Below, in pieces: positions 34,820 to 59,339 of a stretch of 64,000 nucleotides of DNA. Source of the stretch: a candidate division WOR-3 bacterium (GTDB lineage: Bacteria; Hydrothermota; UBA3072); the NCBI GenBank assembly GCA_023131835.1, contig JAGLZA010000102.1, positions 616 through 64,615 on the forward strand, in the 5' to 3' direction. Under the pieces are notes generated by a model that saw only the letters and a program-made list of their open reading frames with translations, made no database searches and was not told where the DNA came from. Both the position numbers and the translations under genes were made by a program. Numbering within the stretch: the stretch's first letter is position 1; each line of letters starts with the position of its first letter.

Positions 34820-34827
34820 TCCCCCTT

Positions 34828-36981: not shown

Positions 36982-36984
36982 TAT

Positions 36985-37872: not shown

Positions 37873-39701
37873 CCCATTCTTAGAATTAAAAGGAATGCAA
37901 GGAAGAGAACTATATAAAGCACATAAGTTCCGAGATCGCCCACGTATATTTTTCTAATTGTATCGGATAAAGTCCCTCCGAATTTTACTATTTTCTCGAA
38001 GAATATTGAAACCCATTCCCTGAAAATAGGTTTCATTTCCCGGAATAAAGGAGCATAGAACTCCGACGTATATGCATATTTATCTCTTGGGGCAGGATGC
38101 CCGGCAGCATAAGTATCTTCCTGAGTAACCCTTTTTGACCTGAATCCAATTCTGTATAGGATGTAAATTCCAAAAACTACCAGTATTATTGCAAAGAAGA
38201 TGTTTACAGTATTAAGCGTTCCCATTTCAGTAACTATTCCCCAGATATTTACCTGCATTGAAGCAAAACCCATATTTTCCATCATCTTACCTATTATATT
38301 AAGAGGAATCCCAGGAAGCACTCCAAAGAGAATAATTGTAAATGAAAAAACAATAATGGGAAATTGCATTGAAAATGGTGCTCTTTTTATATTTGAATAT
38401 TTTTCAGGTAATTGCCCTAAGAACATATTATGGAGAAATTTATAAACTGAGAGGATAGTTCCCCATGTCCCAATAAGAGCTGCAAACGCTAAAAAGGGTG
38501 AATGATTTAAAATTAATGACTTGTAAAGCAACCATTTTGATACAAACCCGTTGGTCAACGGGACCCCGATAAGCCCTGAAATACCCAGGAGAGCTCCCAT
38601 GAATGCAATCGGCATTTTCTTTATTATGCCACCAAGGCTATTCAGGTCCCTCGTATGAGTTCTGTATTCAACTGCACCTACGCTAAAGTAAAGTAAAACT
38701 ATATATATAGCATGGTTCAGGGTGTGGAATATACCTCCGGCAACAGCGAGACTAGATCCATAGGCGATTCCTAAAATCATATATCCACCCTGTCCTATTC
38801 CATGCCAGGCGAGCAGTTTCTTGGCATCGTTCTGAAGTAGAGCAATGAAAGTTCCCATAATAATGGTAATGGCTCCCAGCCACGACAAAATAAAGGAATA
38901 ACCACCTGACCCCACCTCTAAATATCTCCCTAACCCTATGATTACGAACAAAATTAGAAGGAAACCGTATATCCCCATTCTTGTGAGCATACCGGAAATA
39001 ACGGCAGAAAAAGGAGATTCTGATTCTGTATAAGCATCAGGAAGCCATGTATGGAGCGGCATAAGTGCATTTTTAATACCAAAGGAAATGGAGAATAATA
39101 GTAAAGTTGAGAAAATATACCCTGGTGAAAGGGTATGCATTTGCTCCATAATAGCACTAATGTTAAAGGTCCCCAACTGTGAATAAATGACAAGCATACC
39201 AACAAGCATTGAAAATGAGCCAATAATTGATAAAATAATATACTTTAATCCCGCACTCCATCCTTCTTTTTTAAATGATATCAACAGGAAAGTTGACCAG
39301 CTCATTATCTCCCAGTAGATATAGAAAGATATAAGATCACCACTGAACACCACCCCCAACATACCTGCATTTACAAGGAGCATTAAGAGATAAAATAAAT
39401 CCACTCTCTTTTTATGGTTCATATCTGATAGAGAGAATATCATAGCAAAGAGATTTATGGATACGACAGCAATCCCGAAAAACCAGGAAATCCAATCCAT
39501 CTTTAACCTGAGAGGATAGTCAAGGAAAGAAAAGTATGTCAACTCTATTCCCGGCGTCCTGTACATTAAAGAAACAAGAACCACCAGGACAACCGATAAT
39601 AAGATAGCAAAGAAATCCCGGACTCTGGCAGAAATCTTACCGAGAAGGTAAACAAGAAATGCTCCTCCAAAGCCGATGAGTAAAGTGCATTCAAGTAGCA
39701 T
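37857..39701 (-). CDS. MrpA/NuoL/HyfB-like proton-pumping antiporter subunit
   Basis: 614 aa polytopic; Proton_antipo_M-type motifs (WLPDAY..., HAIYI...). Confidence 0.65.
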   Translation of the reverse strand: MLLECTLLIGFGGAFLVYLLGKISARVRDFFAILLSVVLVVLVSLMYRTPGIELTYFSFLDYPLRLKMDWISWFFGIAVVSINLFAMIFSLSDMNHKKRVDLFYLLMLLVNAGMLGVVFSGDLISFYIYWEIMSWSTFLLISFKKEGWSAGLKYIILSIIGSFSMLVGMLVIYSQLGTFNISAIMEQMHTLSPGYIFSTLLLFSISFGIKNALMPLHTWLPDAYTESESPFSAVISGMLTRMGIYGFLLILFVIIGLGRYLEVGSGGYSFILSWLGAITIIMGTFIALLQNDAKKLLAWHGIGQGGYMILGIAYGSSLAVAGGIFHTLNHAIYIVLLYFSVGAVEYRTHTRDLNSLGGIIKKMPIAFMGALLGISGLIGVPLTNGFVSKWLLYKSLILNHSPFLAFAALIGTWGTILSVYKFLHNMFLGQLPEKYSNIKRAPFSMQFPIIVFSFTIILFGVLPGIPLNIIGKMMENMGFASMQVNIWGIVTEMGTLNTVNIFFAIILVVFGIYILYRIGFRSKRVTQEDTYAAGHPAPRDKYAYTSEFYAPLFREMKPIFREWVSIFFEKIVKFGGTLSDTIRKIYVGDLGTYVLYIVLFLAFLLILRMGWNLW

Positions 39702-41170
39702 TATAATGCTCCAAGAACTTGTTCAATATAACCCATTTTATCAATCAGATTATGAGAAGCAAGGTGCAGAAACTGATTTATAGCCTGTGGATATACACCG
39801 ATTCCTACGATAAGAAGAGTCAGAATCACCATTGGGACCAGGGCGGTCAAAGGAGCTTCGTCTATCCCTGTCTCTTCGGTTTTCGAAAAAATTCCTTGCA
39901 GGAGTTTAAAGAAATAGGATATCTCGATTACTGTTCCCAGCAAAACGGCACCAACAAGAAAATAGAAATAAGCCTGATGGGTTAATAAAGCAGACTTTAT
40001 AATAATAAACTTACTGGGAAATCCGATAAAAGGAGGTAAGCCCACGAGAGAGAATGCACCAATCAGGAAACAAAAAGAGGTAATGGGCATTCTGACTCCA
40101 ATTCCCTTCATTTCTTCAATTTTTCTGGAACTAACCTTCCATATCATATAGCCGGCTGCAAGGAAGAGGAGTGCCTTAGAAAGAGCATGCGATAAAACCT
40201 GGAAAAGTCCTCCGGAAATACTCTCGGCAGTTCCAATAGAAATGGCAAAAAGAATGAGACCAATCTGTCCAATTGATGAATAAGCAAGAAGCCTCTTAAT
40301 ATCGTTCTGCTTAAACGCTGATAACTCTCCTATTAACAGAGTCAGTATCCCCAATCCCGCAAGGAAGTGGAGGAGATTTGATGCTCCAAACACGGTCCAG
40401 ACAAATCGCACCACTGCATAGATTCCTACTTCGATTGCAAAACCAGAAAGCACGGCGCTTATAGTCGATGGAGCCGACGAATGAGCATCAGGCAACCAGG
40501 CATTCAAAGGAAATATTGCCCCTTCAATTCCAAAACCGGTAATAAAAAGAAAAAGAGCAAGAAATAATAATGGAGAATTTACAGAATGGATTTGATTTGC
40601 GATATCTGCCATATTGAGTGAACCGCAGAGACCATAGATTAAACCAATTCCTATGAGAATAAAGGCTGAACCTACAGACCCCTGAATGAGATATTTTATC
40701 CCTGCTTCCACACCATCCTTATCTCTGTTATAGGCAACGAGCGCATAAGAAGAAATACAGAGTATCTCAAAAAAGACAAACATGTTAAATATGTCACCGG
40801 TAAGGACAACTCCTACCGAACCCGCCAGAAAGAGAAGGAAAAGTAGATGATATTTATCAATATCTCCCTTTTGGATATATTTTATTGCATAAATGGATAC
40901 GAGAAAGCCCACAAGGCTTACAATTCCTGCAAAGAAGAGGGAAAAGGGGCTTACCACAAGGTTTATTCCAAAAGGAGGTCGAAAACCTCCAATCTTCACC
41001 ACTATTGGATTTTTTGAGACAGCCGGAATCAGTACACCCACTATTATTAACATTGCCAGAGCTACAATCATGGATATGTATTTGGATAGATGTTTGGATA
41101 TAAATGCGAATAAAGGTATAGCGAATGCTCCGCCAAGGGGTATAACGATAAGTAGAACAGGGTTTACCAT
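39701..41170 (-). CDS. MrpD/NuoM/MbhH-like antiporter subunit
   Basis: 489 aa polytopic; AWLPDAHSSAPSTISA... is typical of the antiporter-like family. Confidence 0.65.
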   Translation of the reverse strand: MVNPVLLIVIPLGGAFAIPLFAFISKHLSKYISMIVALAMLIIVGVLIPAVSKNPIVVKIGGFRPPFGINLVVSPFSLFFAGIVSLVGFLVSIYAIKYIQKGDIDKYHLLFLLFLAGSVGVVLTGDIFNMFVFFEILCISSYALVAYNRDKDGVEAGIKYLIQGSVGSAFILIGIGLIYGLCGSLNMADIANQIHSVNSPLLFLALFLFITGFGIEGAIFPLNAWLPDAHSSAPSTISAVLSGFAIEVGIYAVVRFVWTVFGASNLLHFLAGLGILTLLIGELSAFKQNDIKRLLAYSSIGQIGLILFAISIGTAESISGGLFQVLSHALSKALLFLAAGYMIWKVSSRKIEEMKGIGVRMPITSFCFLIGAFSLVGLPPFIGFPSKFIIIKSALLTHQAYFYFLVGAVLLGTVIEISYFFKLLQGIFSKTEETGIDEAPLTALVPMVILTLLIVGIGVYPQAINQFLHLASHNLIDKMGYIEQVLGAL

Positions 41171-41523
41171 TTAAGATCCCTTATCTTTCTAGTGTTGAGG
41201 GTTCCATAATGCCTGTAAAGGACTATTGTCAGGGAAAGAGCAAGAGCAATGATTGCCAATCCTATTACAATAGCGGTTAACACCAGAGCCTGGGGCACGG
41301 GATCAACCATCCTGGAGGGCAAGAGATTCTCACGTGAGAAGATAGGAGCCGTCCCTCCGGATAAATATCCCATGGAAATCAATAAAATATTTACTCCCGT
41401 ATCCATAATTGAAAGACCAATAATCATCTTTATCAGGTTTTTCTTTATCAAAATTATATAAAGACCTATGAGGATTAAACCAAAAGAGGCAATATAATAG
41501 AGATAATTCTCAATAAATTCCAT
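41164..41523 (-). CDS. MrpC/NuoK-like small membrane subunit
   Basis: 119 aa with 3 transmembrane segments, positioned within the Mrp set. Confidence 0.5.
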   Translation of the reverse strand: MEFIENYLYYIASFGLILIGLYIILIKKNLIKMIIGLSIMDTGVNILLISMGYLSGGTAPIFSRENLLPSRMVDPVPQALVLTAIVIGLAIIALALSLTIVLYRHYGTLNTRKIRDLKW

Positions 41524-42239
41524 TATCCACTCCTAATCATGTCATCTATAATGCCGGTTATTTCTGAGCCCACCTTGAATCCTATTGCAATATAGATAAT
41601 AGGAATGATACCGGCACTGAAGAGTTCATTGGGAATTCCTTTTGGCAAATAATTCAAGAGAAAATGTCCACCATAAAGGAGTCCCAGTAGACCTACAACC
41701 ACAAAAATTAGTCCCGAAAGGGACTCTGTTATCTTCATTTTACTTCTATTAAAACCCCACCAACTTCGTGAACCAAGAATAACAAGGAGGAAACCGGAAG
41801 CTACTATAGCACCTCCCTGAAAACCTCCTCCAGGAGTTAAGTGTCCATGAATAAAGATATAAGCGCCGAAAAGAAGAATCAGGGGGAACAGAAATTTGCA
41901 ACCCGTATATAAAATCAAACTGCTCCTTCTCCTATTTTTTCTTTCCCCTTCTTTTTCCCTGTAAAGAATCGCAGAGAGACCAATTGCAGCAAGAAAGAGC
42001 ACTGTCACTTCCCCAAGGGTATCAAATCCACGATAATTGACCACCACTGAGGTTACTATGTTTGTTGCTCCTGTCTGTTCAATTCCTTTTTCCAGGCAGT
42101 ATTTTCTCACTTCACTTTTCGTCTTTCCAAAGGGTACCTCCTGAAGGGAGAGCCCAATCCCTATTGCTATTATGACAACAAGGATAAAACTAACTGCCTT
42201 CCTCATCTTCTTCAAACCTTTTCGTCTTCTTAATTGCAA
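41523..42239 (-). CDS. MrpB/MnhB-domain (MbhE-like) membrane subunit
   Basis: TGATNIVTSVVVNYRGFDTLGEVTVLFLA is an MnhB-domain signature. The start may be the internal Met at about 42206. Confidence 0.55.
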   Translation of the reverse strand: MQLRRRKGLKKMRKAVSFILVVIIAIGIGLSLQEVPFGKTKSEVRKYCLEKGIEQTGATNIVTSVVVNYRGFDTLGEVTVLFLAAIGLSAILYREKEGERKNRRRSSLILYTGCKFLFPLILLFGAYIFIHGHLTPGGGFQGGAIVASGFLLVILGSRSWWGFNRSKMKITESLSGLIFVVVGLLGLLYGGHFLLNYLPKGIPNELFSAGIIPIIYIAIGFKVGSEITGIIDDMIRSG

Positions 42240-42450
42240 TGATGAAAATAGCTACGGTCAGGGCTGCGCCGATGGAAGCCTCAGCCATCGCAACATCCGG
42301 AGCCTGGAGAAAATAGAACAGGATTGCAGCAATGAAACTAACAAAGCCTACGGCAATAACAGCGTTCAATAGATCTTTAAAAATTCCTGCTGCGGCTGCT
42401 GCAATCAGCATTACGAAAACAAGTATTATCTCAAGTATCATTATCTTCAT
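42190..42450 (-). CDS. MbhD/MrpB-N-like small membrane subunit
   Basis: 86 aa with 2-3 transmembrane segments, positioned between MrpG and MnhB homologs. Confidence 0.4.
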   Translation of the reverse strand: MKIMILEIILVFVMLIAAAAAGIFKDLLNAVIAVGFVSFIAAILFYFLQAPDVAMAEASIGAALTVAIFIIAIKKTKRFEEDEEGS

Positions 42451-42763
42451 CCCTGCAGAAATCTTCTGATTGATTCACTTTGGTCTTCTCACAGAACGAA
42501 ACTGAAGACATGTATGATGCCCTTCCGAATGCGTGACTTGATATTGGATTTGTCAGTAAAACAAATACAGCAATTATTAATGTAGTCCAGAACCAGGAAG
42601 GTTCTATTATCCCAACACCAAGAATAGCACAGAAGGCTCCAAGTGTTGTGCATTTTGTCCCTGCCTGAAGCCTGTTGTATACATCAGGCATCCTGTAAAT
42701 GCCAAGACTACCCAGAAATAAAAATATTACTCCAAAACCTGTGACCCACCAACCCCAGGTCAT
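42431..42763 (-). CDS. mrpG: Na+/H+ antiporter subunit G (MrpG/MnhG)-like
   Basis: GIYRMPDVYNRLQAGTKCTTLG matches the MnhG motif. Confidence 0.65.
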   Translation of the reverse strand: MTWGWWVTGFGVIFLFLGSLGIYRMPDVYNRLQAGTKCTTLGAFCAILGVGIIEPSWFWTTLIIAVFVLLTNPISSHAFGRASYMSSVSFCEKTKVNQSEDFCRDEDNDT

Positions 42764-43014
42764 TCAATCCCTCCTTCAAGATATCTTGCAATTGCGACAG
42801 AACCGATAAAGGTTAAAACAGCGTATACAAGCGAGACATCCAGATATATTTTTCTTTTCAGGATAAGACCAATCAGGACCAATAGTGCCGTGGTAACCGT
42901 TACCGATGTATCCAGAGCAACTGCGCGGTCGGGAGCAGTCGGTCCCTTCATCATCCGTAGCAAACACAATACAACTCCCAATCCAATAATTATGAGATAA
43001 ATAGTTCCAATCAT
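42760..43014 (-). CDS. mrpF: Na+/H+ antiporter subunit F (MrpF/MnhF)-like
   Basis: 84 aa; MMKGPTAPDRAVALDT matches the MnhF motif. Confidence 0.65.
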   Translation of the reverse strand: MIGTIYLIIIGLGVVLCLLRMMKGPTAPDRAVALDTSVTVTTALLVLIGLILKRKIYLDVSLVYAVLTFIGSVAIARYLEGGIE

Positions 43015-43535
43015 TGGAATATAATCCTCAGATACTTTTCAAATCTTCCACCTATTATTTCAGTGGCTTCTTCAATAGCGGTGGCTCTGACGTCAATCCA
43101 GTGAATCAGCAATCTATCCTCCTGAATATCAAGAGTAAACGTTCCCGGTGTCAGGGTTATGGAATTAGCAAGGATTATTTTTGCCAGATCTGATTTAAGC
43201 CGGGTCTTTATAATCACCACACCGGGATTTATGGGTAAAGACGGACGAATGATCCGTGAAGCAACATCCAGATTAGCCCTTATTATCTCCCAGAAGAGAA
43301 TGAATATATAAAGGATAAAAAATCCGAATCTTTTAGGTGTTACAGGGGGGAAACCGAGTCGAATATAAAATTCATGAGTGGTGATAGCGATTATAAAAGA
43401 TATAACAATTCCAACCCAGAATTCCTGGTAATAGAAGGTCGATGTAAGGAGAAGCCAGAGTATAAAAAGAGAGAAAAATAGCCACAAAAAACCTTTTATT
43501 CTATCTTTTCCAGAATAATTATTATTCTTATACAT
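43011..43535 (-). CDS. mrpE: Na+/H+ antiporter subunit E (MrpE/MnhE)-like
   Basis: 174 aa; ...ANSITLTPGTFTLDI... matches the MnhE motif. Confidence 0.6.
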   Translation of the reverse strand: MYKNNNYSGKDRIKGFLWLFFSLFILWLLLTSTFYYQEFWVGIVISFIIAITTHEFYIRLGFPPVTPKRFGFFILYIFILFWEIIRANLDVASRIIRPSLPINPGVVIIKTRLKSDLAKIILANSITLTPGTFTLDIQEDRLLIHWIDVRATAIEEATEIIGGRFEKYLRIIFQ

Positions 43536-43537
43536 CT

Positions 43538-45196
43538 TTAAAATATATCTATCATTCTTGCCAGAGATTCTTTACCTCTATATTCTGGTAAAAGGATTGG
43601 AGACCTTCTTTCGGGTTTGATGCCTGCTTCCTTAAGCATTTCAACATATCTTTTCTGATGCTCAAGGGTAAGTTTGCCCTGTTTTGCCCCTGATTTCACA
43701 TATTCAGCAGTTGAAATTCCAGACCTTCTACCGAATACCATGGTATCCAGGGTTGAATTTCCCATAAGTCTGTTCTTTCCATGGACTCCTCCTGAAACTT
43801 CGCCTGCTACCCATAATCCATCAATAGTGGTATGACCATGGGGATCTGTTTCCACTCCTCCATTTTGATAGTGAAGTGTGGGGAAGACGAGAACAGGATT
43901 TTTTGTCATATCAATATCATACCGACTGAACATCCTGTTCATTCCGGGAAAGGCTTTCTCAATATAGCCCTTACCGTACTTTTCATCAATCAGAGGAGTA
44001 TCCAGCCAGACACCTCTGAGGCCAGTTGGAGTGGTGATTCCTTTATCTCTGACATAACACTCCCTTATTATCGCAGAGGCTTCCACATCCCTTGGTTCGA
44101 GAGGAAAAACAAAGGCTTCTCCATCTATATTAACAGGTTGCGCTCCGGAACTTCTTAGTTTCTCTGTGAGAAGATAGCCTACAATCTGAATCGGATATGC
44201 TGCTCCAGTGGGATGATATTGGACTGTATCAGTATCCCTCAATTTTGCCCCTGCCCGGTATGCTAATACGATTCCATCAGCAGTGGCTCCGTAATGATTG
44301 GTGGTCGGGAATCCTCTTATATGTAGTCGTCCGAAACCACCGGTAGCAAGAATTGTTGCGGTAGCCTCCACAATCTTATATTCTCCGGTTTCAAGATTAT
44401 AAAGAACCGCTCCTGTAACTCTATTTTCTCCATCAGTAAGGAATTCAATAGCAGGGTAATGTTCAATACATCCTATCTCCTTACTTCGAAATTCATCCCT
44501 AATAACCCTTAATTCTTCAAGACCTGTATAGTCCTTGCAGGAGTGCAACCTCCTGATTGATGTCCCACCTCCCCATTTCTCCACAAAATTTCCATTCTCT
44601 TCTTTATCAATAATTGCACCTAATTCGTGCAACCAGTGCATTATAAAGGGTGCATCTTCAACCAATCCACGCAGAACTTCCGGTTTATTTGTGAAGTGCC
44701 CTCCCCCCATAGTATCGATATAATGCCTCTTCAGGGAATCAACCTCCCTGTCTGCTGCTTGAGTCCCCCCTTCTGCCATAATTGAATTGGCATCTCCGTG
44801 TCTTAATTTATTAACAAGTAAAATTTTATCTTTGGATATCCCTTCATTATTTGCCCAGATTGCGGCAGTGGTTCCTGCAAGTCCTCCCCCAATTATTAAG
44901 ATATCTACACTGTAATCTGCAGAGGAAATATCAATCTCCTCCTCTTCCACAAGTGGATAGGCTTCGAGCAAATTCACGACCGGGTCCGGAGCAATATCTC
45001 CTTTATTCTGCCCGATGGAAATCTTTCTTTTACCTCCGGGTGCATAATCAGGATGAAGATTTAAGACCTCCTCCTGCTCCTCCCTGCTCATTGGCTCGGG
45101 AGTGTAGTCCTTTCTCTTCTGCCTTGTGGCATGAACTTTATCAATAAGTTTATACATATTCTCAGGATAACCTTCAATATACTTTAATTCAGCCAT
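43538..45196 (-). CDS. Succinate dehydrogenase/fumarate reductase-family FAD flavoprotein (paralog 1) with ~110-aa N-terminal extension
   Basis: AGGAGG SD. ILIIGGGLAGTTAA Rossmann fold; NSIMAEGG; active-site region VQYHPTGAAYP; C-terminal capping domain. The FAD fold is preceded by an extra N-terminal region not typical of SdhA. Confidence 0.7.
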   Translation of the reverse strand: MAELKYIEGYPENMYKLIDKVHATRQKRKDYTPEPMSREEQEEVLNLHPDYAPGGKRKISIGQNKGDIAPDPVVNLLEAYPLVEEEEIDISSADYSVDILIIGGGLAGTTAAIWANNEGISKDKILLVNKLRHGDANSIMAEGGTQAADREVDSLKRHYIDTMGGGHFTNKPEVLRGLVEDAPFIMHWLHELGAIIDKEENGNFVEKWGGGTSIRRLHSCKDYTGLEELRVIRDEFRSKEIGCIEHYPAIEFLTDGENRVTGAVLYNLETGEYKIVEATATILATGGFGRLHIRGFPTTNHYGATADGIVLAYRAGAKLRDTDTVQYHPTGAAYPIQIVGYLLTEKLRSSGAQPVNIDGEAFVFPLEPRDVEASAIIRECYVRDKGITTPTGLRGVWLDTPLIDEKYGKGYIEKAFPGMNRMFSRYDIDMTKNPVLVFPTLHYQNGGVETDPHGHTTIDGLWVAGEVSGGVHGKNRLMGNSTLDTMVFGRRSGISTAEYVKSGAKQGKLTLEHQKRYVEMLKEAGIKPERRSPILLPEYRGKESLARMIDIF

Positions 45197-45210
45197 CTTA
45201 TCCTCCTGAA

Positions 45211-45999
45211 TTAATCTTCTTCTCTTTTTCTTTCTGCATACATCCGCTCCAGTTCTTCTCTGCTTAGTTTTGTAATTTCTTTCATCTCTTTATCGAATTT
45301 GCCTTCTTCTATCTCTTCTAATCTTTTCTTAAGGTGTTCAGGTTCCGGACTATCATACCTTCCATACAGTCTTCTTCCTAATTGAGCAATATTGTATTGC
45401 ACAATTTCAGAAGGACATCTTATTGCGCAGAGCCCACACTGTATACAATCAAAGGATTCCTCGGCAAGTCCTTTAAAATCGCCCTTAATAGCTGCCTGAA
45501 CGTAATCCATAACTTCCAGATCCTGAGGGCAGGCTTTTGTACAGGTATTGCAGGATACACATCTTGCAAGTTCCGGATAATATTCAAAAAGCACATTAAC
45601 ATCGTATTCATGTTCTGTTAGGTCATAAGAAGGTTTCTCGGCAGGGACAAAAGGTATCTGAACAAGATACATCTCATCTTCAACCCTGGTCTGACATGCC
45701 ATACCGGTCTGAAGTTTATATTCACCCTTTTTTCTATAGACCGTGGAACAGGCCCCACAGAATCCCTGCCTGCAACCAACACCTCTAACGAATTTATACC
45801 CTGCATACTCCATTGCAGTCAATATAGTAAGGTCGGCAGGAACTTCATAGGCTCTCCCCATTATATAAATAGTTACCCAGTTCTCCACCTCTTCATCTTC
45901 AACCCCGGAAACCACCTGCCTGCTTGCTTCAGCAATTCTGTCCATAATCTCTTTCGAATCTAATTTCTTATCTGATGAGGTTTCTTCTTTATTTGGCAT
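45211..45999 (-). CDS. SdhB/FrdB-like iron-sulfur subunit ([2Fe-2S]+[4Fe-4S]+[3Fe/4Fe-4S])
   Basis: CRQGFCGACS; CVSCNTCTKACP; CIQCGLCAIRCP. Start reassigned to the ATG at 45999 (GGGAGG SD) rather than the longer ORF-track start. Confidence 0.7.
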   Translation of the reverse strand: MPNKEETSSDKKLDSKEIMDRIAEASRQVVSGVEDEEVENWVTIYIMGRAYEVPADLTILTAMEYAGYKFVRGVGCRQGFCGACSTVYRKKGEYKLQTGMACQTRVEDEMYLVQIPFVPAEKPSYDLTEHEYDVNVLFEYYPELARCVSCNTCTKACPQDLEVMDYVQAAIKGDFKGLAEESFDCIQCGLCAIRCPSEIVQYNIAQLGRRLYGRYDSPEPEHLKKRLEEIEEGKFDKEMKEITKLSREELERMYAERKREED

Positions 46000-46900
46000 T
46001 GTTCCTCCCAATAAGATTTTTCTCCTTTAACAATGGCTCTGGATTCACATAATTCAGGTCAAAACCATAATAATCTTCATTTAATCCAAAACCAATCGCC
46101 ATAAGCTGGGTAAAATAAAACACTGGAATCCTGGTAAAATCAGAATGTTTCTCCTTAATTTCCTTCTGTCTGGAATCAAGATTAAAAGCACAGAGAGGGC
46201 AACTTAACGAAATAGCCTCTGCTCCTGCGTTTTGAGCGTGAGTCAGGATGTCATAGGCAAGATTGGAAACGACCTGTTTATCCCGGATTGTCTGATAACT
46301 ACCGCAACAAACTTTCTTATAAGGATTATCGATAACCTCTGCACCCAAAGCGAAAATCAATTCTTCCTGAATTACAGGTTCCTCAGGGTCGTCAATTCCA
46401 ACTTCCTTAGGTCTTAAAAGCATACATCCATAGTATGGAGCTATTTTTAATCCTTTGAAAGGATTCGTTACATTCTCTTTTATTTTCTCAAAACCTATAT
46501 CCTTTATTAGTTCTAAAAAATGTATAACTTCCACATTACCTTTATAATCTTCTTCCAGATACATAAAGTCATTTATCTTTTTAAGATCATCAGGTTTTTC
46601 TTTTACTCGAATATTCGCTCTCTTTAACGTGTTATAACACATTGAACATAAGGTAACGAGCCTGTGGTCGTTTTCCACCAGTCCATTTTTATTCATCTCC
46701 TGCACCCTTATCAGATTTCTGATTGGGGCTACATGATGAATCAAATCATCATCGGTAAGCGAAAAAACGGTTCCACAGCAGTTCCATCTGGAAAGTTCAA
46801 TCAACTCTATACCTAACTTTTCGGCAACAGCGAGGGCAGAGGTTTCAAAATTTCTTGCCTTTGTTTTAAGAGTGCATCCGGGATAATATGAAACCTTCAT
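45989..46900 (-). CDS. hdrB: Heterodisulfide reductase subunit B-like (two CCG domains)
   Basis: MKVSYYPGCTLK...WNCCG is the N-terminal CCG motif, with a second CCG domain (...KKVCCGS...). Confidence 0.75.
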   Translation of the reverse strand: MKVSYYPGCTLKTKARNFETSALAVAEKLGIELIELSRWNCCGTVFSLTDDDLIHHVAPIRNLIRVQEMNKNGLVENDHRLVTLCSMCYNTLKRANIRVKEKPDDLKKINDFMYLEEDYKGNVEVIHFLELIKDIGFEKIKENVTNPFKGLKIAPYYGCMLLRPKEVGIDDPEEPVIQEELIFALGAEVIDNPYKKVCCGSYQTIRDKQVVSNLAYDILTHAQNAGAEAISLSCPLCAFNLDSRQKEIKEKHSDFTRIPVFYFTQLMAIGFGLNEDYYGFDLNYVNPEPLLKEKNLIGRNNAK

Positions 46901-46904
46901 TAAT

Positions 46905-47309
46905 CTATCCTGTAAATTTTCTCATACCGCTTATCAGAGCAATCTGAGGTAATCGCTTCATTTCATCCTTCGAGAGTTTCTTTACATCAATATGATCTAT
47001 AGCCTGACGGAGTTCCACCTGTCTTAGTGCCTCTGCTACCTTGGACAAATCCAATCCGCGGGGACATCTTACAGTGCAAGTAAAACAGGAGGCGCACAAC
47101 CACATGGCTTTTGACTCCATAACCTCAGATTCTCCAAGCTGTACCATTCTCATCAACTGGGAAGGTGTAATATCCATCTCGGATACCATGGGGCAACTTG
47201 CCGAACAGATTCCACATTGGTCACATCGAGTTATCACCTCACCTGATAATTCTTCAATCTTCTTCAGAAAATCCACATTTTTGTCAGATAGTTTAAGTTT
47301 CTTAATCAT
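46905..47309 (-). CDS. hdrC: Heterodisulfide reductase subunit C-like (2x[4Fe-4S])
   Basis: CDQCGICSASCP and CASCFTCTVRCP. Confidence 0.75.
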   Translation of the reverse strand: MIKKLKLSDKNVDFLKKIEELSGEVITRCDQCGICSASCPMVSEMDITPSQLMRMVQLGESEVMESKAMWLCASCFTCTVRCPRGLDLSKVAEALRQVELRQAIDHIDVKKLSKDEMKRLPQIALISGMRKFTG

Positions 47310-49719
47310 ACTCTTCTCCGAATAATCTTTTATTTACATTTTCAACCAATTTCTCTCGCTTTTCCGGGGATATAGCCCCTGCTTCCCTTGCGTAATTCAC
47401 CAATCCGTTCACATTATCAACGAAGCCCTTCAACATTATAGTAACAAATTGTACAAATCGTAACCTTTCCGGCTTTATGCCTTCTTCCTTCAAAATTTCC
47501 CGTACTTTTGTTATATTCTCTCTGATAACCTGACCACTATGAGGAAAAGGAGAAGTCCTATCTTCACATTCACCAATGAATATTCCATCGGCACCCAATT
47601 TGAAAGCAGCTAACATGAGTTTAGGTGTAATCCGGCTTCCACTGGGAACTCTTATAATAATGGAATCCGTGGTGTATGAAAGTTTTGCAGTTCCTACTGA
47701 ATCCGCAAGTCGGTAGGTGCAGGTATCATCAGCAACTACAAGTATTCTTGTTTCTCCTTCTTCTTTTCCCTCCAGGGCATTTTTAATCTCTTCCAGTAAT
47801 TGCTTATTCGTATACATATGCAAATCCAGAGCATCCCGTGGACAGGAAGCAACACAACTCCCACATCCTCTACATAATGCTTCGTTTACTTCGGCTACCT
47901 CTGCGGAAATTGAGATTGCATTTAGGGGACAGCTATCAATACAAAGTTCACATCCATCGCACTGTTCTTCATGGACAAACGCTACTATGGGCTCTATTGG
48001 GTACTCTCTCTGGTTCATCAATCTTACGGCTCTGGATGCAGCTGCAGATGCCTGGGCTACCGTATCAGGTATATCTTTAGGACCCTGGACGGTTCCAGCC
48101 AGAAATATACCCTCTCTATTAGTGTCAACAGGTTTGAACTTTGGATGAGCCTCTTTAAGAAATCCGTCTTCACTCTTTGCAAGCCTTAACATTTCTGCAA
48201 TTTTATCGGTACTCTTTGACAGACCCATACCCACTGACAATACAACGGTATCGAATTCAGCTTCTATTATCTGACGGGTAAGTGTATCTTCTGCTTTTAG
48301 TATTACCTTATTTGAACCTGAATCCTCCATTACCTCCGCAACTCTACCTCTTATGAATTTGACACCCATATTCTGAGCCCTCTTATAATACTCTTCAAAT
48401 CCTTTGCCAAAAGCGCGGAGGTCCGTATAGAAAACATAAATATCCCTTTCTGGCTTGGAATGTTTCAGCAGACTCGCAAGTTTTGTTGCATACATGCAGC
48501 ACACTCTTGAGCAGTACTCTCTTCCCACCTGCTCATCTCTTGAACCAACACATTGAATAAATCCAATTCTCTTTCCCGGATCTCTTATTGGATTCCCTTC
48601 TGCAGCTTTAACTATCATTCGTTCCATCTCCAGAGCAGTTATTACATTCTTAAACTTATCATATCCGTAGACCTTCTTTTCTGAAGGGTTGAAAATATCA
48701 TAGCCGGTTGCTACTATTATTGTATCAACCGTAAATTCTATTTCTTCAGGCTTGTCATTAAAATTTATTGCATCTTCTTTACATACTTCTATACAATTAC
48801 CACAAGAATTTATATCCCTCTGGAGATTGATACAGGCTTCCGGATCGATCAAATTCCTGTGTGGTACAGCAAAGCCAAACGGAGTATAAATTGCAGTGTG
48901 AGTTGTCAGTCCTTCCTCAAATTCATCAGGAATATCCACAGGACATACCTCTTCACAATCACCGCAAGCAACGCACTTATCCATATCTACATATCTTGGT
49001 TTTTTAGTAACTTTCACCTTAAAATTGCCAAGATAACCTTCAACATTCTCCACCTCAGAGTAGGTAAGTAAATTTATATTAGGGTTGGACTGGACATCAG
49101 CCATCTTCGGGCTAAGGATACAGGCAGAACAGTCTTCAGTTGGAAAGGTTCTTGAAAGTTGTGCCATGTGTCCTCCGATACTTGGCTCTTTTTCGACCAG
49201 GTAAATCTCAAAACCCGCATCTCCCAGATCAAGTGAAGCCTGAATCCCTGCAATACCACCCCCTATCACCAGAACTCTTTTCCCTATGGGCATGGTCTTT
49301 TTCTCCAGGGGCTCGGAGAATCTCACTTTTGCTATTGCTGCGTTAACCAGTTCTTTTGCTTTTTTGGTAGCAAGTTCCGGAGTATCAAAGTGAGGCCAGG
49401 CACATTGCTCGCGAATATTTGCCATCTGAACCACATAGGGTGACAAGCCTGCTGTCTCGAGTACCCTCATGAATGTTTCACCCTGGAATTGAGGGGAACA
49501 GGCTGCAACAACAACTTTGTCCAAATCGTGTTCCTCAATATCATCTATGATAAGTTGTTGACCAATATCTGAACACATATGAGTATGGTTTTTCGACAGT
49601 ATAACACCCGGCTGTTTCCCCGCAAATCCAACTACCTCTTCAACATCCACAACCTCGGATATATTCCCACCACAATGACAAACATATACCCCTATTCTTG
49701 CTCTACTATCTTTTTTCAT
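47302..49719 (-). CDS. hdrA: Heterodisulfide reductase subunit A-like FAD/FeS flavoprotein with C-terminal MvhD-like domain
   Basis: N-terminal IGVYVCHCGGNI, FAD site VLVIGGGIAGIQASLDL and multiple ferredoxin CxxCxxCxxxCP motifs. The C-terminal 150 aa resemble MvhD (...IRVPSGSRI...GADGIFIGEC...) with most Cys ligands replaced. Confidence 0.75.
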   Translation of the reverse strand: MKKDSRARIGVYVCHCGGNISEVVDVEEVVGFAGKQPGVILSKNHTHMCSDIGQQLIIDDIEEHDLDKVVVAACSPQFQGETFMRVLETAGLSPYVVQMANIREQCAWPHFDTPELATKKAKELVNAAIAKVRFSEPLEKKTMPIGKRVLVIGGGIAGIQASLDLGDAGFEIYLVEKEPSIGGHMAQLSRTFPTEDCSACILSPKMADVQSNPNINLLTYSEVENVEGYLGNFKVKVTKKPRYVDMDKCVACGDCEEVCPVDIPDEFEEGLTTHTAIYTPFGFAVPHRNLIDPEACINLQRDINSCGNCIEVCKEDAINFNDKPEEIEFTVDTIIVATGYDIFNPSEKKVYGYDKFKNVITALEMERMIVKAAEGNPIRDPGKRIGFIQCVGSRDEQVGREYCSRVCCMYATKLASLLKHSKPERDIYVFYTDLRAFGKGFEEYYKRAQNMGVKFIRGRVAEVMEDSGSNKVILKAEDTLTRQIIEAEFDTVVLSVGMGLSKSTDKIAEMLRLAKSEDGFLKEAHPKFKPVDTNREGIFLAGTVQGPKDIPDTVAQASAAASRAVRLMNQREYPIEPIVAFVHEEQCDGCELCIDSCPLNAISISAEVAEVNEALCRGCGSCVASCPRDALDLHMYTNKQLLEEIKNALEGKEEGETRILVVADDTCTYRLADSVGTAKLSYTTDSIIIRVPSGSRITPKLMLAAFKLGADGIFIGECEDRTSPFPHSGQVIRENITKVREILKEEGIKPERLRFVQFVTIMLKGFVDNVNGLVNYAREAGAISPEKREKLVENVNKRLFGEEYD

Positions 49720-50005
49720 TAATTTAATAACCTTAAGTTAATAAAAAAATATCCCCTTTATTATTCAATTTAAAAACCCCTATCCTAAATTGGGCAATTC
49801 TTTGTTCACAAAAAAACTAATAGGATATTCCAATTTGTCAACCCCTCACAGACTTGAAATCTGTTTTCCTCCTTCTGGAGAATGGAATATAGAAGATTTT
49901 AGTCCAATTTAACCATGTTCCAGCTATTCTATGCCTTTCTCAGATTTTTAAGACAGACCTCTCCCGTGAATCAAGAAAATTATATTTTCTGGGGAAAGGA
50001 ATTAT

Positions 50006-50368
50006 CTATGCTGTAGATATTGCAGATGGACTGTTTGCCTTCTCCCAGAGTTTCTGGATCTTTATCCTCTCCCAAACTGCTCCTGTTGCTTTCAGAATAA
50101 TTTCTCTACCAGTTCGGACTATCTTTGCTGCAAAATCTATTATACGCCTTCTGAAAGTAGTTGCATAACCCTTTTCTTCTATAATAGTGACAACTCTTTC
50201 TACAACATCTTTCTTAAATACCTCATAAAGAAAAGATGCTATAAGCATTGTATAATAAAAACCAGCATTACACTCAAATCGGGAGTTTGTCAAAAATTGT
50301 GTCTGAGTGAAAGGAAACTTGTATAAAAGGTAACGGTTATTATCCCAGAAGAGTGCAAGCTGGATCAA
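50006..50368 (-). pseudogene. C-terminal fragment of an IS4/IS1380-family transposase (remnant)
   Basis: ...RRRIIDFAAKIVRTGREIILKATGAVWERI... resembles the conserved C-terminal tail of IS1380/IS4 transposases. No DDE core is present, and it sits in an 1.1-kb non-coding gap between the two Hdr clusters. Confidence 0.4.
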
Positions 50369-50619
50369 TGGGATTGGATGTGGAAATTCCTCGGGATAGA
50401 AAAGACGAATTTCGCTCTCTTCTTTTACACGGAAGAAAATGGGAAAGGAGTGATGAAGGATACAAGAGACTACTTTTATCTCTTGTGGAAAGCGGATATT
50501 CTAAAAAAAGAGTAAGGGAGGTTCTAAGAAAATTAGGTCTTTCCTACAACAAGGAGAAGATGGAGAGGATAAAAGAGGAATTTCTCCGTGAAGTAAAGGA
50601 ATCAAACAAAGAGAGATAG
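50353..50619 (+). other. Small ORF (88 aa) of unknown function, possibly another IS-related fragment
   Basis: Basic, Lys/Arg/Glu-rich; overlaps the transposase remnant on the opposite strand. Confidence 0.2.
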
Positions 50620-50819
50620 AGAGTGAGTAGTTCGCCATCTTCATAGACGCAGAGGAATCAGTCTGCGTGCAACGCACTCCCAGGCGCAGAGAAGATGTAG
50701 GGAACGCATATATGTGTTCCTTTAATCCTTTGGATCCTTTAGAAAGCAAGAAAACGGAGGGGTGCAAACGCTATACGCCCCTACAATTATTTATCGCGGA
50801 CGCAAGGTCCTGAGTGACT

Positions 50820-52481
50820 TCAGCGCAGGGTTCCCAAATATTGCGTGGTGAGTTGTTTCTCCTTTGTCTCCTTCCTCGTATAATCCGGCAGGACCATAGG
50901 AGCTACTTTATCCTCCGCAATATCTATCTCCCTTAGTTCTTTTACATATTTTTTAACATGCTTAAGGGAGAGTTTACCAGGAGTTACTCCCTTAATATAC
51001 TCAGTCGCTGCCCTTCCGGCTCTCTGTCCGAAGACTAAAACACCAAGTAATGAATTACCCATAAGACGGTTTCTACCGTGAACTCCCCCGCTAACTTCTC
51101 CTGCTACATAGAGACCAGGAACCGTTGTAGAACAATCATCGGATATCTCCAAACCACCGTTCTGATAATGCAGAGTAGGATAAACAAGAATAGGAGTCTC
51201 TGTTATATTGATGCCGAATCGCATATTCTGTCTGAACATTGCAGGGAAACCCTTCTCTATTGCTCCCTTTCCCGCTTTCATCTCTATAAGAGGAGTATCC
51301 AGCCAGACCCCTTTCATTCCGGTGGGAGTCTCTACACCCTTCCCGGTTGCACATTCCCGTATCAATGATGCAGCTTCTATATCCCTTGGTTCCAATGGAT
51401 AGACGAATTGTTCACCAATGACATTTACCGGCTCTGCGCCTGCTCCCCTTATCTTCTCTGTTACCAACTGCCCTACTATCTGCTCCGGATAGGCAGCACC
51501 CGTGGGATGATACTGGACGGTATCCATAAACACCAACTTAACCCCAGCCCTGTACCCCATTATTAACCCATCAGCCGTAGCTCCGTAATGATTCGTCGTT
51601 GGGAATCCCTGGATATGTAATCTTCCAAAACCACCAGTAGAAAATATTACTGAGGTTGCTCTTGCAACAAGATATTCCTCTGTCTCAAGGTTGAAAAGGA
51701 TTGCACCTGATACTTTGCCATCTTCATCAAGAAGCAACTCCACTGCAGGAGAAAACTCTAATATATTTATTGAATCCGGATGATTTTGCACCTCATCGCG
51801 GAGGCATTTCATTATCTCTCCACCGGTGTAATCCCTTGCTGAATGCATCCTCTTTCTCGATGTCCCCCCACCGTGGAGGGTAATCATCGTGCCATCTTTT
51901 TCCTTATCGAACATTACACCGAGATCTTCAAGCCATCCGATAACCCCTGGCGCATCCATTACCAGTGCTTTCACCAATTCAGGAATATTGCGAAAATGCC
52001 CCCCACCAATAACATCAAGGTAGTGAATGGCAGGCGAATCATTTTCCTTATCCGCTGCCTGAATACCACCCTGAGCCATCATTGTATTAGCATCTCCCAA
52101 TCTCAATTTTGTGACAATGGTAACACTGGCACCACTCTCTGCGGCAATGATTGCTGCAGACGCTCCTGCACCTCCACCTCCAATCACAAGAATATCTGTT
52201 TCCAGATCCGTTTTCGTAAGGTCAATCTTATCCGGATCGATTCTCGGATATGCCTCAAGGAGGTCAACAACCTCCTGGACCACGGATGTTCCTTTAGATG
52301 AACCAACCCTCAATTCTCTTGTATTACCTTCCTTATAATCGGGATGATATTTCTTTAACAGTGCATCGCCTTCCTCTAAACTCATTGCAGGATGGAGCTT
52401 TTCTACTCTGGACTTACGTGTCGCTTCTACCTTTTCAATAGACTGCCACATCTCATTTGTATACCCGCCCTTCAAATCCAT
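50820..52481 (-). CDS. Sdh/Frd-family FAD flavoprotein (paralog 2) with conserved N-terminal extension
   Basis: GAAGGAGG SD; ILVIGGGGAGASAA; TMMAQGG; VQYHPTGAAYP. The N-terminal region shares HPDY and LLEAYP blocks with paralog 1. Confidence 0.7.
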   Translation of the reverse strand: MDLKGGYTNEMWQSIEKVEATRKSRVEKLHPAMSLEEGDALLKKYHPDYKEGNTRELRVGSSKGTSVVQEVVDLLEAYPRIDPDKIDLTKTDLETDILVIGGGGAGASAAIIAAESGASVTIVTKLRLGDANTMMAQGGIQAADKENDSPAIHYLDVIGGGHFRNIPELVKALVMDAPGVIGWLEDLGVMFDKEKDGTMITLHGGGTSRKRMHSARDYTGGEIMKCLRDEVQNHPDSINILEFSPAVELLLDEDGKVSGAILFNLETEEYLVARATSVIFSTGGFGRLHIQGFPTTNHYGATADGLIMGYRAGVKLVFMDTVQYHPTGAAYPEQIVGQLVTEKIRGAGAEPVNVIGEQFVYPLEPRDIEAASLIRECATGKGVETPTGMKGVWLDTPLIEMKAGKGAIEKGFPAMFRQNMRFGINITETPILVYPTLHYQNGGLEISDDCSTTVPGLYVAGEVSGGVHGRNRLMGNSLLGVLVFGQRAGRAATEYIKGVTPGKLSLKHVKKYVKELREIDIAEDKVAPMVLPDYTRKETKEKQLTTQYLGTLR

Positions 52482-52482
52482 C

Positions 52483-53160
52483 CTAAGCCTCCTTCTCTCT
52501 CTTTTTGTATCTCTTTTTCAACTCTTCTTCAGATAGAGACATCAATTCCTCGACCTCTTTTTTCCACATTCCCTTATTCAGTTCTTCTATTCGTTTTTCT
52601 GTATGCAAAGACCTCGGAGCCAAATATTTACCATACAATCGCCTTACAAGGATTGCAACATTATACTGAACTATCTCTGCAGGACATCTCATAGCACAGA
52701 GTCCACACATTATACAGTCAAATGAGATATCTGCTGCCCTTTCTATATCCTCTCTAATGATCGCCTGAACATAATCCATTACATTTATATCCTGAGGACA
52801 GGCCTTGGTGCAGGTATTACAACTCACGCATTTAAATGTCTCGGGATATAACCGTTGAAATACTCCAACTGTAGGCGAGAGTTGATCGATGTCGTAGCGA
52901 GCCCTCTGAGCAGGTACAAATGGCAGTTGAGCGAGAAACATACCATCTTCCACCTTGGTCTGACAGGCAAGATCTGCTCTGAGTTTATAATCGTCTTCTA
53001 GGCGGTATACGGTAGCACAGGCTCCACAGAATCCTTCCCTGCACCCTGCTCCCCGCTTCACCTGGTAACCTGCATATTCCATCGCTGTCAGGATGGTGAG
53101 ATTGCTGGGAACACGGTATTCCTTCCCCATTATATATATTCTTACCATATTATCATCCAT
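52483..53160 (-). CDS. SdhB/FrdB-like iron-sulfur subunit (paralog 2)
   Basis: CREGFCGACA; CVSCNTCTKACP; CIMCGLCAMRCP. Confidence 0.7.
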   Translation of the reverse strand: MDDNMVRIYIMGKEYRVPSNLTILTAMEYAGYQVKRGAGCREGFCGACATVYRLEDDYKLRADLACQTKVEDGMFLAQLPFVPAQRARYDIDQLSPTVGVFQRLYPETFKCVSCNTCTKACPQDINVMDYVQAIIREDIERAADISFDCIMCGLCAMRCPAEIVQYNVAILVRRLYGKYLAPRSLHTEKRIEELNKGMWKKEVEELMSLSEEELKKRYKKREKEA

Positions 53161-53602
53161 TGTTAAGAACCTCCTTTTGAGTCAAAACCTCCTCCGTTGA
53201 AAAGTTTAGAGGACCTAAAGCCCTTATCTCCTCAATAAATTCATCAACAATAACTGCATAACGTTTCCCCTCACTCGCAGAGATCCACTCCAATCTTAAT
53301 CTTTCAGGTTCAATTCCAAGATCCGCAAGTAAACGTTGCAATATCATAATCCTCTTCCGGGTCTTATAGTTTCCATTTATATAATGACAATCACCTGGAT
53401 GACAACCTCCAACAAAAACACCATCAGCCCCCTCCCTGAAACTCTCCAATATTTGCTCCATATTCAACCGAGAGGAACACATAAGTCGTATATTGGTTGT
53501 ATCGGGTTTATGCTTTATTCTTGAGGTTCCGGCAAGGTCCGCACCTGCATAGGTACACCATTTACACACAAAACTCACTATCTTTGGTTCAAATTCACTC
53601 AT
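53153..53602 (-). CDS. mvhD: Methyl-viologen-reducing hydrogenase delta subunit
   Basis: 149 aa; FVCKWCTYAGADLAG...IRLMCSSRL...GADGVFVGGCHPGDCHY with the Cys ligands retained. Confidence 0.8.
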   Translation of the reverse strand: MSEFEPKIVSFVCKWCTYAGADLAGTSRIKHKPDTTNIRLMCSSRLNMEQILESFREGADGVFVGGCHPGDCHYINGNYKTRKRIMILQRLLADLGIEPERLRLEWISASEGKRYAVIVDEFIEEIRALGPLNFSTEEVLTQKEVLNNG

Positions 53603-56840: not shown

Positions 56841-56841
56841 A

Positions 56842-59270: not shown

Positions 59271-59339
59271 AACTTCTCCCTTTATTTTTCCCTTTAACAC
59301 TGAATAGTGTCCTTGTCTCAATCATTGCCTCAATATAGT

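Follow-up and report, generated by a model that had tools for sequence, protein, structure and literature searches.

A five-gene locus, module 2 (positions 43538-49719), was analysed in the window, a 64-kb stretch of DNA from a metagenome-assembled genome (MAG) labelled candidate division WOR-3. Module 2 probably encodes a soluble, quinone-independent fumarate reductase that is coupled to an Hdr-type core and is likely to be electron-bifurcating. We propose this because its flavoprotein carries the catalytic residues of FrdA, because the flavoprotein gene is embedded among hdr genes, and because 2-oxoacid:ferredoxin oxidoreductase (OFOR), fumarase and malic enzyme genes are neighbours of the corresponding genes in relatives. 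The substrate, the direction of the reaction, bifurcation and the electron donor are what we infer from gene content, motifs, conserved residues, cysteine losses and genomic associations. The host is a bacterium, as genes for lipopolysaccharide, a type IX secretion system (T9SS) and sigma-54 are present.

A sequence-only reading of the window had described module 2 as a second, diverged copy, lacking a hydrogenase, of five functions found in module 1, the mvh-hdr cluster running from 59321 down to 50820. This description was confirmed: paired subunits of the two modules are 46-59% identical, no hydrogenase genes were found between 32957 and 49719, and the genes are ordered hdrA(+MvhD)-hdrC-hdrB-FeS-flavoprotein as against hdrC-hdrB-hdrA-mvhD-FeS-flavoprotein in module 1 (FeS, iron-sulphur subunit). 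The MvhD/FlpD-like domain fused to the C-terminus of HdrA2, hereafter MvhD*, is indeed cysteine-poor. It has two cysteines, and three of the four invariant positions are gone, which makes the suggested electron exchange with a partner other than MvhAG reasonable. The claimed contiguity with Mrp/complex-I-like genes also held, with 2 nt between the stop codon of the flavoprotein gene and the start codon of mnhE.

Gene content and cofactor motifs of module 2

The five open reading frames (ORFs) of module 2 are all located on the minus strand and are full length when compared with their homologues (Table 1). Domains were assigned with Pfam and families with NCBIfam models and their curated cut-offs. 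The cofactor motifs are intact, the cysteines of MvhD* excepted.

HdrA2 aligned with 8rvu_a, the HdrA chain of a structurally solved, bifurcating methanogen Mvh-Hdr complex, with 735 bits over residues 6-650 (645 residues), the flavin adenine dinucleotide (FAD) and FeS cysteine motifs being in register; the TrxR-like FAD domain and the N-terminal, inserted and C-terminal 4Fe-4S cysteine motifs are all present. The residues equivalent to E356 and K409 (in ALEMERM and CCMYATK), which are listed as critical for bifurcation (PMC12054007), appear conserved in this alignment.

The FeS subunit contains a CxxxxCxxC...C motif of the plant-type 2Fe-2S kind and two complete CxxCxxCxxxCP motifs, and has no CCG domain. 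From these motifs, besides the [2Fe-2S] cluster, two [4Fe-4S] clusters are predicted, not one 4Fe-4S plus one 3Fe-4S. An AprAB/Qmo-type system was considered and rejected, the FeS partner having a Fer2 domain and the flavoprotein best matching TfrA, FrdA and NadB.

The genes are tightly packed: hdrC2 and hdrA2 overlap by 8 nt, and gene junctions within each of modules 1 and 2 range from -23 to +14 nt. The frdAB-like genes are contiguous with hdrABC, and the same contiguity recurs in related loci (L005-L093, see below). No dedicated donor module, either FlxABCD or MvhADG, was found in 43538-49719.

Catalytic residues and fold of the flavoprotein

Residue conservation was examined in a set of 58 sequences drawn from the two paralogue clades, with E. 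coli FrdA as reference. H328, T344, E345, R369, H442 and R476 of the flavoprotein align with FrdA H232, T244, E245, R287, H355 and R390, and these six catalytic residues were invariant in all 58 sequences of the two clades. The histidine that binds FAD covalently is replaced by Asn137, which was equally invariant, and the FAD is thus predicted to be non-covalently bound. In established FrdA/SdhA enzymology, non-covalent FAD goes with fumarate reduction more than with the oxidation of succinate. The replacement of the histidine by asparagine would therefore favour the fumarate-reducing direction.

The AlphaFold2 model of the flavoprotein (pLDDT 82, pTM 0.86) had E. coli FrdA (1kf6_A) as its top fold match, with a TM-score of 0.64, followed by other SdhA/FrdA chains. 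The best fold alignments take in no more than about 455 of the protein's 552 residues. Residues 1-94 make up an extra N-terminal domain, which is predicted with confidence and is specific to the family, and the family profiles match the protein only to about SdhA position 430.

Loss of the cluster ligands from the fused MvhD domain

MvhD* was recognised by the FlpD model (PF02662, cut-off 22.3) at 77 bits, the match spanning positions 1-121 of the 123 in the profile; for the MvhD of module 1, which is free-standing, the score was 167 bits. The cysteines of 44 free-standing MvhDs from the fetched loci were compared with those of 13 fused domains, that of module 2 included, using the numbering of M. 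thermolithotrophicus MvhD. In the free-standing proteins C13, C42, C67 and C72 were invariant (44/44) and C16 was found in all but four. The residues of MvhD* at C13/C16/C42/C67/C72 are D/C/S/C/S, so that one of the four invariant positions is kept. All 13 fused HdrA2-type domains have Asp at C13, Ser at C42, Ser, Asn or Ala at C72, and Ser or Cys at C67; three or four of the invariant cysteines are missing from each of the other 12.

As three of the four invariant cysteines are gone, the usual entry route for H2 electrons through the MvhD [2Fe-2S] cluster appears to be closed in module 2. Judged by its conservation, MvhD* is nevertheless retained as a domain and is under purifying selection: the mean pairwise identity among the 13 fused homologues was 57% for MvhD* and 69% for the HdrA core, compared with 39-40% for the linker and tail. 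The HdrA of the hydrogenase-free copy would represent a subtype of its own, with the MvhD domain still present and the cluster lost. In such a subtype the structural part played by MvhD is set apart from its part in electron transfer, and it marks complexes needing a new electron donor.

An exhaustive search of 1.84 billion representatives yielded seven clusters at E<=1e-30, many of the representatives being fragments; its top 20 sequences included further, more distant cysteine-less MvhD-like tails on HdrA-like proteins. A word-index search with MvhD* alone returned five fragments only. One protein of the representative library (P0264, 1229 aa) is an HdrA into which a GltD-type NAD(P)H/FAD module is inserted and which ends in a cysteine-less MvhD-like domain; it resembles the archaeal 'type III' HdrA (PMC12054007) combined with MvhD*. 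A cysteine-containing form of the fused domain occurs in a close relative of module 2 (L007), where it adjoins mvhGA.

Distribution and genomic context of relatives

Relatives of the flavoprotein were found on at least 594 stretches in a one-genome-per-species collection. Genomic context was read in the best 80 of these (67-89% identity), nearly all of which are labelled as uncultured MAGs; the relatives are named L005-L093. Relatives of flavoprotein 2, with 75-92% identity, occur in MAGs labelled WOR-3, Fermentibacteria, Aminicenantes, Deltaproteobacteria, Phycisphaerae and Thermoplasmatota, and those of flavoprotein 1 (module 1), with 60-80% identity, in Chloroflexi, WOR-3, Aerophobetes, Cloacimonetes and Armatimonadetes. 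Between these two sets the identity is about 52-56%, and there are no intermediates.

Synteny mapping showed that the order of the hdr genes varies around a constant FeS-flavoprotein pair (S-F), which was found in L005-L086 wherever the contig reaches far enough. With A, B and C standing for the hdr genes and D for mvhD, the order A(+MvhD*)-C-B-S-F was found in 12 loci and A-D-C-B-S-F in nine, while three loci have C-B-[OFOR]-A-D-S-F (L053, L069 and L018, the last with no MvhD labelled) and one has G-H-C-B-A-D-S-F (L084). A further locus, L093, has HdrA-MvhD-MvhG-MvhA-S-F without HdrBC. In this locus (4489-11668; JGI Ga0346505_11335809) no HdrB or HdrC was found within 10 kb. As the pair occurs there without HdrBC, it could serve as an acceptor module of HdrA, and in some lineages it may replace HdrBC in this role.

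In 19 of the 80 loci the gene chain also includes OFOR genes. In L053 a four-gene OFOR set stands between hdrB and hdrA (C-B-OFORd-a-b-g-A-D-S-F); this interspersion, shared by L018 and L069, is like that of the tubeworm symbionts, the MAGs being labelled Aminicenantes and Eubacteriales. Succinyl-CoA synthetase genes are present in L011, L024, L056, L066 and L089, and a relative of copy 1 (L091) has aconitase, isocitrate dehydrogenase and malic enzyme genes upstream. The order in L007 (5431-17581) is OFOR-HdrA-C-B-S-F-malic enzyme-fumarase alpha-fumarase beta-MvhG-MvhA. Such surroundings are what one would predict for the conversion of fumarate to succinate in a reductive tricarboxylic acid (TCA) branch that uses and produces ferredoxin.

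Compared with module 2, L007 has a flavoprotein of 89%, an FeS subunit of 85% and an HdrB of 76% identity, but an HdrA of only 44% and an HdrC of only 49%, which indicates modular recombination within Hdr-Frd clusters.

The Mbx-like operon and transcription of module 2

Module 2 is followed by the genes of an Mbx-like membrane complex (Table 1), in which the NuoB subunit has four cysteines and the NuoD-like subunit two. Junctions within this unit are of 8 nt or less. No junction between hdrA2 and nuoI-gltD is longer than 14 nt, and the genes are therefore predicted to form one operon of 18 genes (32957-49719).

Scans for promoters and terminators gave counts not above shuffled expectation, and the only notable promoter match was a sigma-70-like site upstream of mvhG (59359-59332). 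No minus-strand terminator was found between the modules or before mnhE. The Rex operator TTGTGAAN4TTCACAA gave three weak matches in total, fewer than expected by chance and none of them near the modules. No sigma-54 promoter was found upstream of hdrA2 or mvhG, the good sites belonging to two STAND-type activator loci. These encode sigma-54 activators (AAA_16 + TPR) of 1384 and 1385 aa, at 11820-15974 (+) and 28226-32383 (-), which are 69% identical, have a GC content of 0.34 and are inverted relative to each other. Downstream of each there is a -24/-12-like sigma-54 site, 16160-16175 (+) and 28020-28035 (-), before a large gene: one for a T9SS-tailed protein of 753 aa (16305-18566), the other for a protein of 951 aa with no Pfam match (25086-27941).

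The tight junctions of the 18 genes would be accounted for if the Hdr-Frd unit were the soluble output or input arm of the Mbx-like complex, docked through MvhD*, the whole acting as an ion-translocating ferredoxin/NAD(P)H:fumarate oxidoreductase. A Mbx-like operon is also found near a Frd-type module in L008 and, on the other strand, in L014 and L050. P0264 has a GltD-type module physically joined to an HdrA bearing the cysteine-less domain, and the NuoD-like subunit lacks both the NiFe cysteines and the quinone-site histidine. However, for most MvhD*-type modules no Mbx-like gene lies within 10 kb. In L008 the Mbx-like complex lies 4.3 kb downstream of the Frd-type module, and six genes intervene: lgt, an MFS transporter gene, a methyltransferase gene, two small genes (Nitro_FeMo-Co and TauE families) and rex. 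A scan of metagenomes for MnhE gave only four loci, and the three long ones (L095-L097) are stand-alone Mbx-like operons with no Hdr or Frd genes within 7-10 kb upstream. The Thermotoga-type Mbx-like/GltD operon has likewise been described without Hdr (PMC4758237). The Mbx linkage is lineage-specific and argues for co-regulation here and not for an obligatory supercomplex, which we consider unlikely.

Proposed function and alternatives

In the fumarate reductase that we propose, the five proteins would form one complex, HdrA(MvhD*)-HdrC-HdrB-FrdB-like-FrdA-like, in which an Hdr-type electron-transfer and bifurcation core has a fumarate reductase as its high-potential terminus, rather than, or besides, a disulfide. 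HdrA would supply the site of flavin-based bifurcation. Electrons would pass from the HdrA flavin through HdrC, the non-cubane clusters of HdrB and the [2Fe-2S]/2x[4Fe-4S] subunit to the FAD of the flavoprotein, where fumarate would be reduced to succinate, and this exergonic branch would pay for the reduction of ferredoxin at the ferredoxin domains of HdrA.

For module 1 the donor would be H2, through MvhAG and the [2Fe-2S] cluster of MvhD. In module 2, where MvhD* would have a structural role and could not bind a [2Fe-2S] cluster, the donor would be other than H2 by the usual MvhD route. The likeliest candidate is NAD(P)H, which might deliver its electrons straight to the flavin of HdrA or by way of the GltD-type flavoprotein that is fused to NuoI; alternatively, the complex might simply run from ferredoxin to fumarate. 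The Mbx-like complex would be a second ferredoxin-linked enzyme, an ion-translocating ferredoxin:NAD(P)+ oxidoreductase, and the whole operon would then couple fumarate reduction to an ion gradient without quinones.

A more speculative extension, which we regard as doubtful, is that the 18-gene operon encodes a complete quinone-free fumarate respiration, its units possibly docked through MvhD*. The Hdr-Frd unit would bifurcate electrons from NAD(P)H to fumarate and ferredoxin, and the Mbx-like complex would return ferredoxin electrons to NAD(P)+ while pumping ions, in a loop analogous to caffeate respiration in Acetobacterium. If true, this would be a new mode of anaerobic respiration. If the Hdr-Frd unit is bifurcating, fumarate reduction would yield low-potential ferredoxin, which could power reductive carboxylations or quinone-free ion pumping. 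The unit is widespread among candidate phyla, including WOR-3, Fermentibacterota, Aminicenantes and Cloacimonadota.

Several observations weigh against the proposed Hdr-coupled fumarate reductase. None of the five module 2 proteins reached the curated cut-off of an NCBIfam model. The best scores were 944 bits for HdrA2 with the model of that name (cut-off 1100), 181 for HdrB2 with HdrB (345), 68 for HdrC2 with HdrC (160) and 299 for the flavoprotein with TfrA (718); the FeS subunit scored 29 with TfrB (385). For HdrB2 the second match, at 146 and also below its cut-off, was the SdhE membrane-anchor type, and for the flavoprotein the NadB models scored nearly as well as TfrA and FrdA. The flavoprotein has no Pfam match to Succ_DH_flav_C (PF02910), its N-terminal extension is unique, and its conservation of 75-92% across phyla could reflect a different dicarboxylate-like substrate. 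Both CCG motifs of HdrB2 are intact, which is compatible with a thiol/disulfide substrate. No fumarase, OFOR or succinyl-CoA synthetase genes were found within the 64-kb window.

As to the donor, no conserved donor gene was found beside the MvhD*-type modules examined, their neighbours being unrelated genes or ferredoxin enzymes (OFOR, AOR), and one MvhD* locus (L059) directly follows mvhA-hycI. The distance to the Mbx-like genes in L008 and the stand-alone operons of L095-L097 likewise count against a functional link between the two units. Gene clusters have led to proposals of Hdr-coupled fumarate reductases since about 2019; to our knowledge, no member has been purified, and we know of no demonstration of fumarate-dependent ferredoxin reduction for any Hdr-linked member.

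The TfrAB enzyme of Methanothermobacter is a thiol:fumarate reductase that oxidises CoM-SH and CoB-SH (coenzymes M and B). By analogy, HdrABC of module 2 might reduce a bacterial heterodisulfide while a separate FeS-flavoprotein enzyme re-oxidises the thiols with fumarate. TfrA was the best NCBIfam match of the flavoprotein, HdrB keeps all ten CCG cysteines, and a model of this kind has been drawn for Cloacimonadota (PMC8542988). The FeS subunit, however, lacks the CCG domain, which is the thiol-oxidising part of TfrB, and the sole CCG protein of the module is HdrB; for this reason such a thiol shuttle is disfavoured. In addition, in L093 and L056 the pair adjoins HdrA/MvhD/Mvh in a gene chain that lacks HdrBC, and the tight translational coupling of the five genes suggests one complex. 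Moreover, CoM and CoB are, as far as we know, not found in these bacteria. We therefore think it improbable that a thiol carries the electrons.

The nearly equal NadB scores, and the catalytic set that NadB and Frd have in common, would also be compatible with an L-aspartate-oxidase-like or other enoate/dicarboxylate oxidoreductase, and the N-terminal extension and the absent C-terminal domain would fit another function. Yet the flavoprotein has an obligatory SdhB-like FeS partner, which NadB lacks, and its neighbours in relatives are genes for fumarase, malic enzyme, succinyl-CoA synthetase and OFOR, not for NAD biosynthesis. An aspartate-oxidase-like role is disfavoured by this partner and this context, and succinate oxidation feeding HdrA is disfavoured by the non-covalent FAD, the covalent-binding histidine being an asparagine. 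We give little credence to either.

Module 1, divergence of the two copies and integrity of the tandem

MvhA of module 1 contains both NiFe motifs, RICGVC and DPCMAC. The identity between modules 1 and 2 is 46% for HdrA, 52% for HdrB, 48% for HdrC, 59% for the FeS subunit and 54% for the flavoprotein; MvhD of module 1 and the fused MvhD* are 29% identical. Given these values for the paired subunits, the modules are, on present comparison, old paralogues or xenologues and not the result of a recent duplication. Since the two flavoproteins fall in two separately widespread clades, horizontal gain of one copy appears as likely as duplication within the lineage.

The sequence-only reading had called for phylogenies of HdrA. 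On a quick neighbour-joining tree of HdrA cores, calculated without support values, HdrA1-type proteins with the C-B-A-D order and HdrA2-type proteins with the A-first order fall in separate clades, but the latter clade mixes MvhD* and free-MvhD forms and MvhD* was not resolved as monophyletic.

GC content at third codon positions (GC3) was 0.34-0.35 in four of the five module 2 genes (0.42 in hdrC2) and 0.35-0.46 in module 1. The values of module 2 equal those of the housekeeping genes of the window and those of module 1 are slightly higher; this comparison gave no clear sign of recent transfer of either module.

The spacer between the modules is 99% identical in an independent assembly from another sample (L002), with about a dozen single-nucleotide polymorphisms (SNPs) and one indel. 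It contains an IS1380-like C-terminal piece at 50006-50368 (-) and a Mutator/IS256-like piece at 50353-50619 (+). The spacer is a scar of two insertion sequences, which suggests that the tandem arose via rearrangement or acquisition mediated by such elements.

The sequence-only reading had also held that both copies are maintained, and had asked whether other genomes keep them. Both modules are intact and conserved, each has full-length relatives, a second MAG also carries both copies, and an identical flavoprotein was found in the same context on contigs from several independent assemblies. The transposase fragments and the slight GC3 difference notwithstanding, the idea that one copy is decaying into pseudogenes or that the assembly wrongly joins two strains, which that reading had named as its refutation, is hardly credible and was rejected: all ORFs are full length, only the MvhD* cysteines are lost and that loss is common to 13 homologues, close full-length relatives of each copy occur in many genomes, and the same junction, 99% identical with SNPs, recurs in another sample. 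The genome offers a natural side-by-side comparison of an H2-fed and a hydrogenase-free copy.

Table 1. Positions of the main features in the window
Feature	Position	Strand	Description
hdrA2	47302..49719	-	805 aa; HdrA (FAD, six 4Fe-4S motifs) with C-terminal MvhD-like domain; Pfam Pyr_redox_2, Fer4, FlpD/MvhD
MvhD* domain	47383..47745	-	HdrA2 residues 659-779; FlpD fold without [2Fe-2S] cysteines
hdrC2	46905..47309	-	134 aa, 8 Cys, 2x[4Fe-4S]; Pfam 4Fe-4S dicluster
hdrB2	45989..46900	-	303 aa; Pfam CCG x2, exactly 10 Cys
FeS subunit, SdhB/TfrB-N-terminal-like	45211..46011	-	266 aa, 12 Cys; Fer2 + dicluster
FrdA/TfrA-like flavoprotein	43538..45196	-	552 aa; Pfam FAD_binding_2, E=4e-62, 211 bits
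Mbx-like membrane complex	32957..43535	-	13 genes: MnhE/F/G, MbhD, MbhE-MnhB, NuoK, two NuoL/M/N-type antiporters, NuoH, NuoB, NuoC, NuoD, NuoI-GltD
NuoD-like subunit	34828-35925	-	without NiFe cysteines and without quinone-site histidine
NuoI-GltD fusion	32957-34819	-	PRK13984 'putative oxidoreductase', 839 bits vs NCBIfam cut-off 946
Module 1	50820..59321	-	mvhG-mvhA-hdrC-hdrB-hdrA-mvhD-FeS-flavoprotein
Inter-module spacer	49720..50819		1.1 kb; IS1380-like + Mutator/IS256-like transposase fragments

Comparison with known systems

Modules with frdAB/tfrAB-like genes among hdr genes are widespread, and the literature already treats such modules as putative bifurcating fumarate reductases. Pseudoclostridium thermosuccinogenes has a 'succinate operon' fumarase-FlxABCD-HdrABC-Frd, described as a putative bifurcating fumarate reductase (PMC7282089, citing Koendjbiharie & van Kranenburg 2019). 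The tubeworm symbionts and Thioflavicoccus have tfrAB-flxABCD-hdrABC-korABCD clusters (PMC6315080; also PMC13147460), and Cloacimonadota have Mvh-Hdr-TFR-OGOR clusters (PMC8542988). A survey of WOR-3 treated mvhADG-hdrABC only in terms of reduction of the CoM-S-S-CoB heterodisulfide, with no link to fumarate reduction (PMC12542636).

Module 2 shares with these putative fumarate reductases the frdAB/tfrAB-like genes placed in hdrABC, and the relatives of the window interleave OFOR, fumarase and succinyl-CoA synthetase genes in the same manner. The proposed logic is also the same, with fumarate as the high-potential and ferredoxin as the low-potential acceptor. The likeness to the Firmicute and gammaproteobacterial clusters is one of described gene content. 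Module 2 differs in having neither an Flx (NADH) nor an Mvh (H2) donor module, and in having the cluster-less MvhD* and the linkage to a Mbx-like operon. New here are the loss of the MvhD* cysteines across 13 fused homologues and the gap-free run into the Mbx-like operon.

The methanogen MvhADG-HdrABC complex (5ODC, 8RVU) is matched by the alignment of HdrA2, by the two CCG domains of HdrB and by the two clusters of HdrC, and module 1 has a full MvhAGD. In contrast to the methanogens, the host of the window is bacterial with no known CoM-S-S-CoB, FrdAB-like subunits are added, and in module 2 MvhD is fused, three of its four invariant cysteines are lost and there is no hydrogenase.

With the TfrAB of Methanothermobacter, module 2 shares TfrA as the best curated family and both halves of TfrB, SdhB-like and CCG. 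These halves are separate genes in module 2 (FeS subunit and HdrB), HdrA and HdrC are additional, and the flavoprotein has an extra N-terminus of 94 aa and a shorter C-terminus.

For the FrdABCDE of Hydrogenobacter thermophilus, the extra subunits are reportedly GltD-like and HdrB/HdrC-like. Module 2 would differ in that HdrA takes the place of this reportedly GltD-like NADH subunit, a GltD-like domain being present only where it is fused to NuoI, in the last gene of the operon. The summary of Miura et al. (2008) given in PMC13147460 describes FrdABCDE as a soluble, five-subunit, NADH-dependent and irreversible fumarate reductase of the reductive TCA cycle. As far as that summary goes, the two systems have in common a cytoplasmic, quinone-independent, multi-subunit organisation and an FrdA-like flavoprotein core.

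The type Ia HdrA of Methanosarcina and other archaea, an HdrA2 with fused MvhD, has been described with a [2Fe-2S] cluster, and its proposed donor, which is independent of hydrogenase, would act at the flavin or close to it (PMC12054007). Module 2 has the same succession of HdrA core and C-terminal MvhD, and HdrA2 is its best NCBIfam model; the cluster ligands, however, are replaced by Asp, Ser or Thr in module 2 and in 12 bacterial homologues.

Thermotoga and proteobacteria have a 'Mbx-like' operon with a GltD-related subunit, for which electron transfer between ferredoxin and NAD(P)+ has been proposed (PMC4758237). The operon of the window agrees with this Thermotoga-type Mbx-like/MBS system in its Mrp plus NuoBCDHI layout, in a NuoD without the NiFe site and in a NuoI joined to a GltD-type flavoprotein. 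It differs in its predicted transcriptional fusion to an Hdr-Frd module, unlike the Mbx-like operons of L095-L097.

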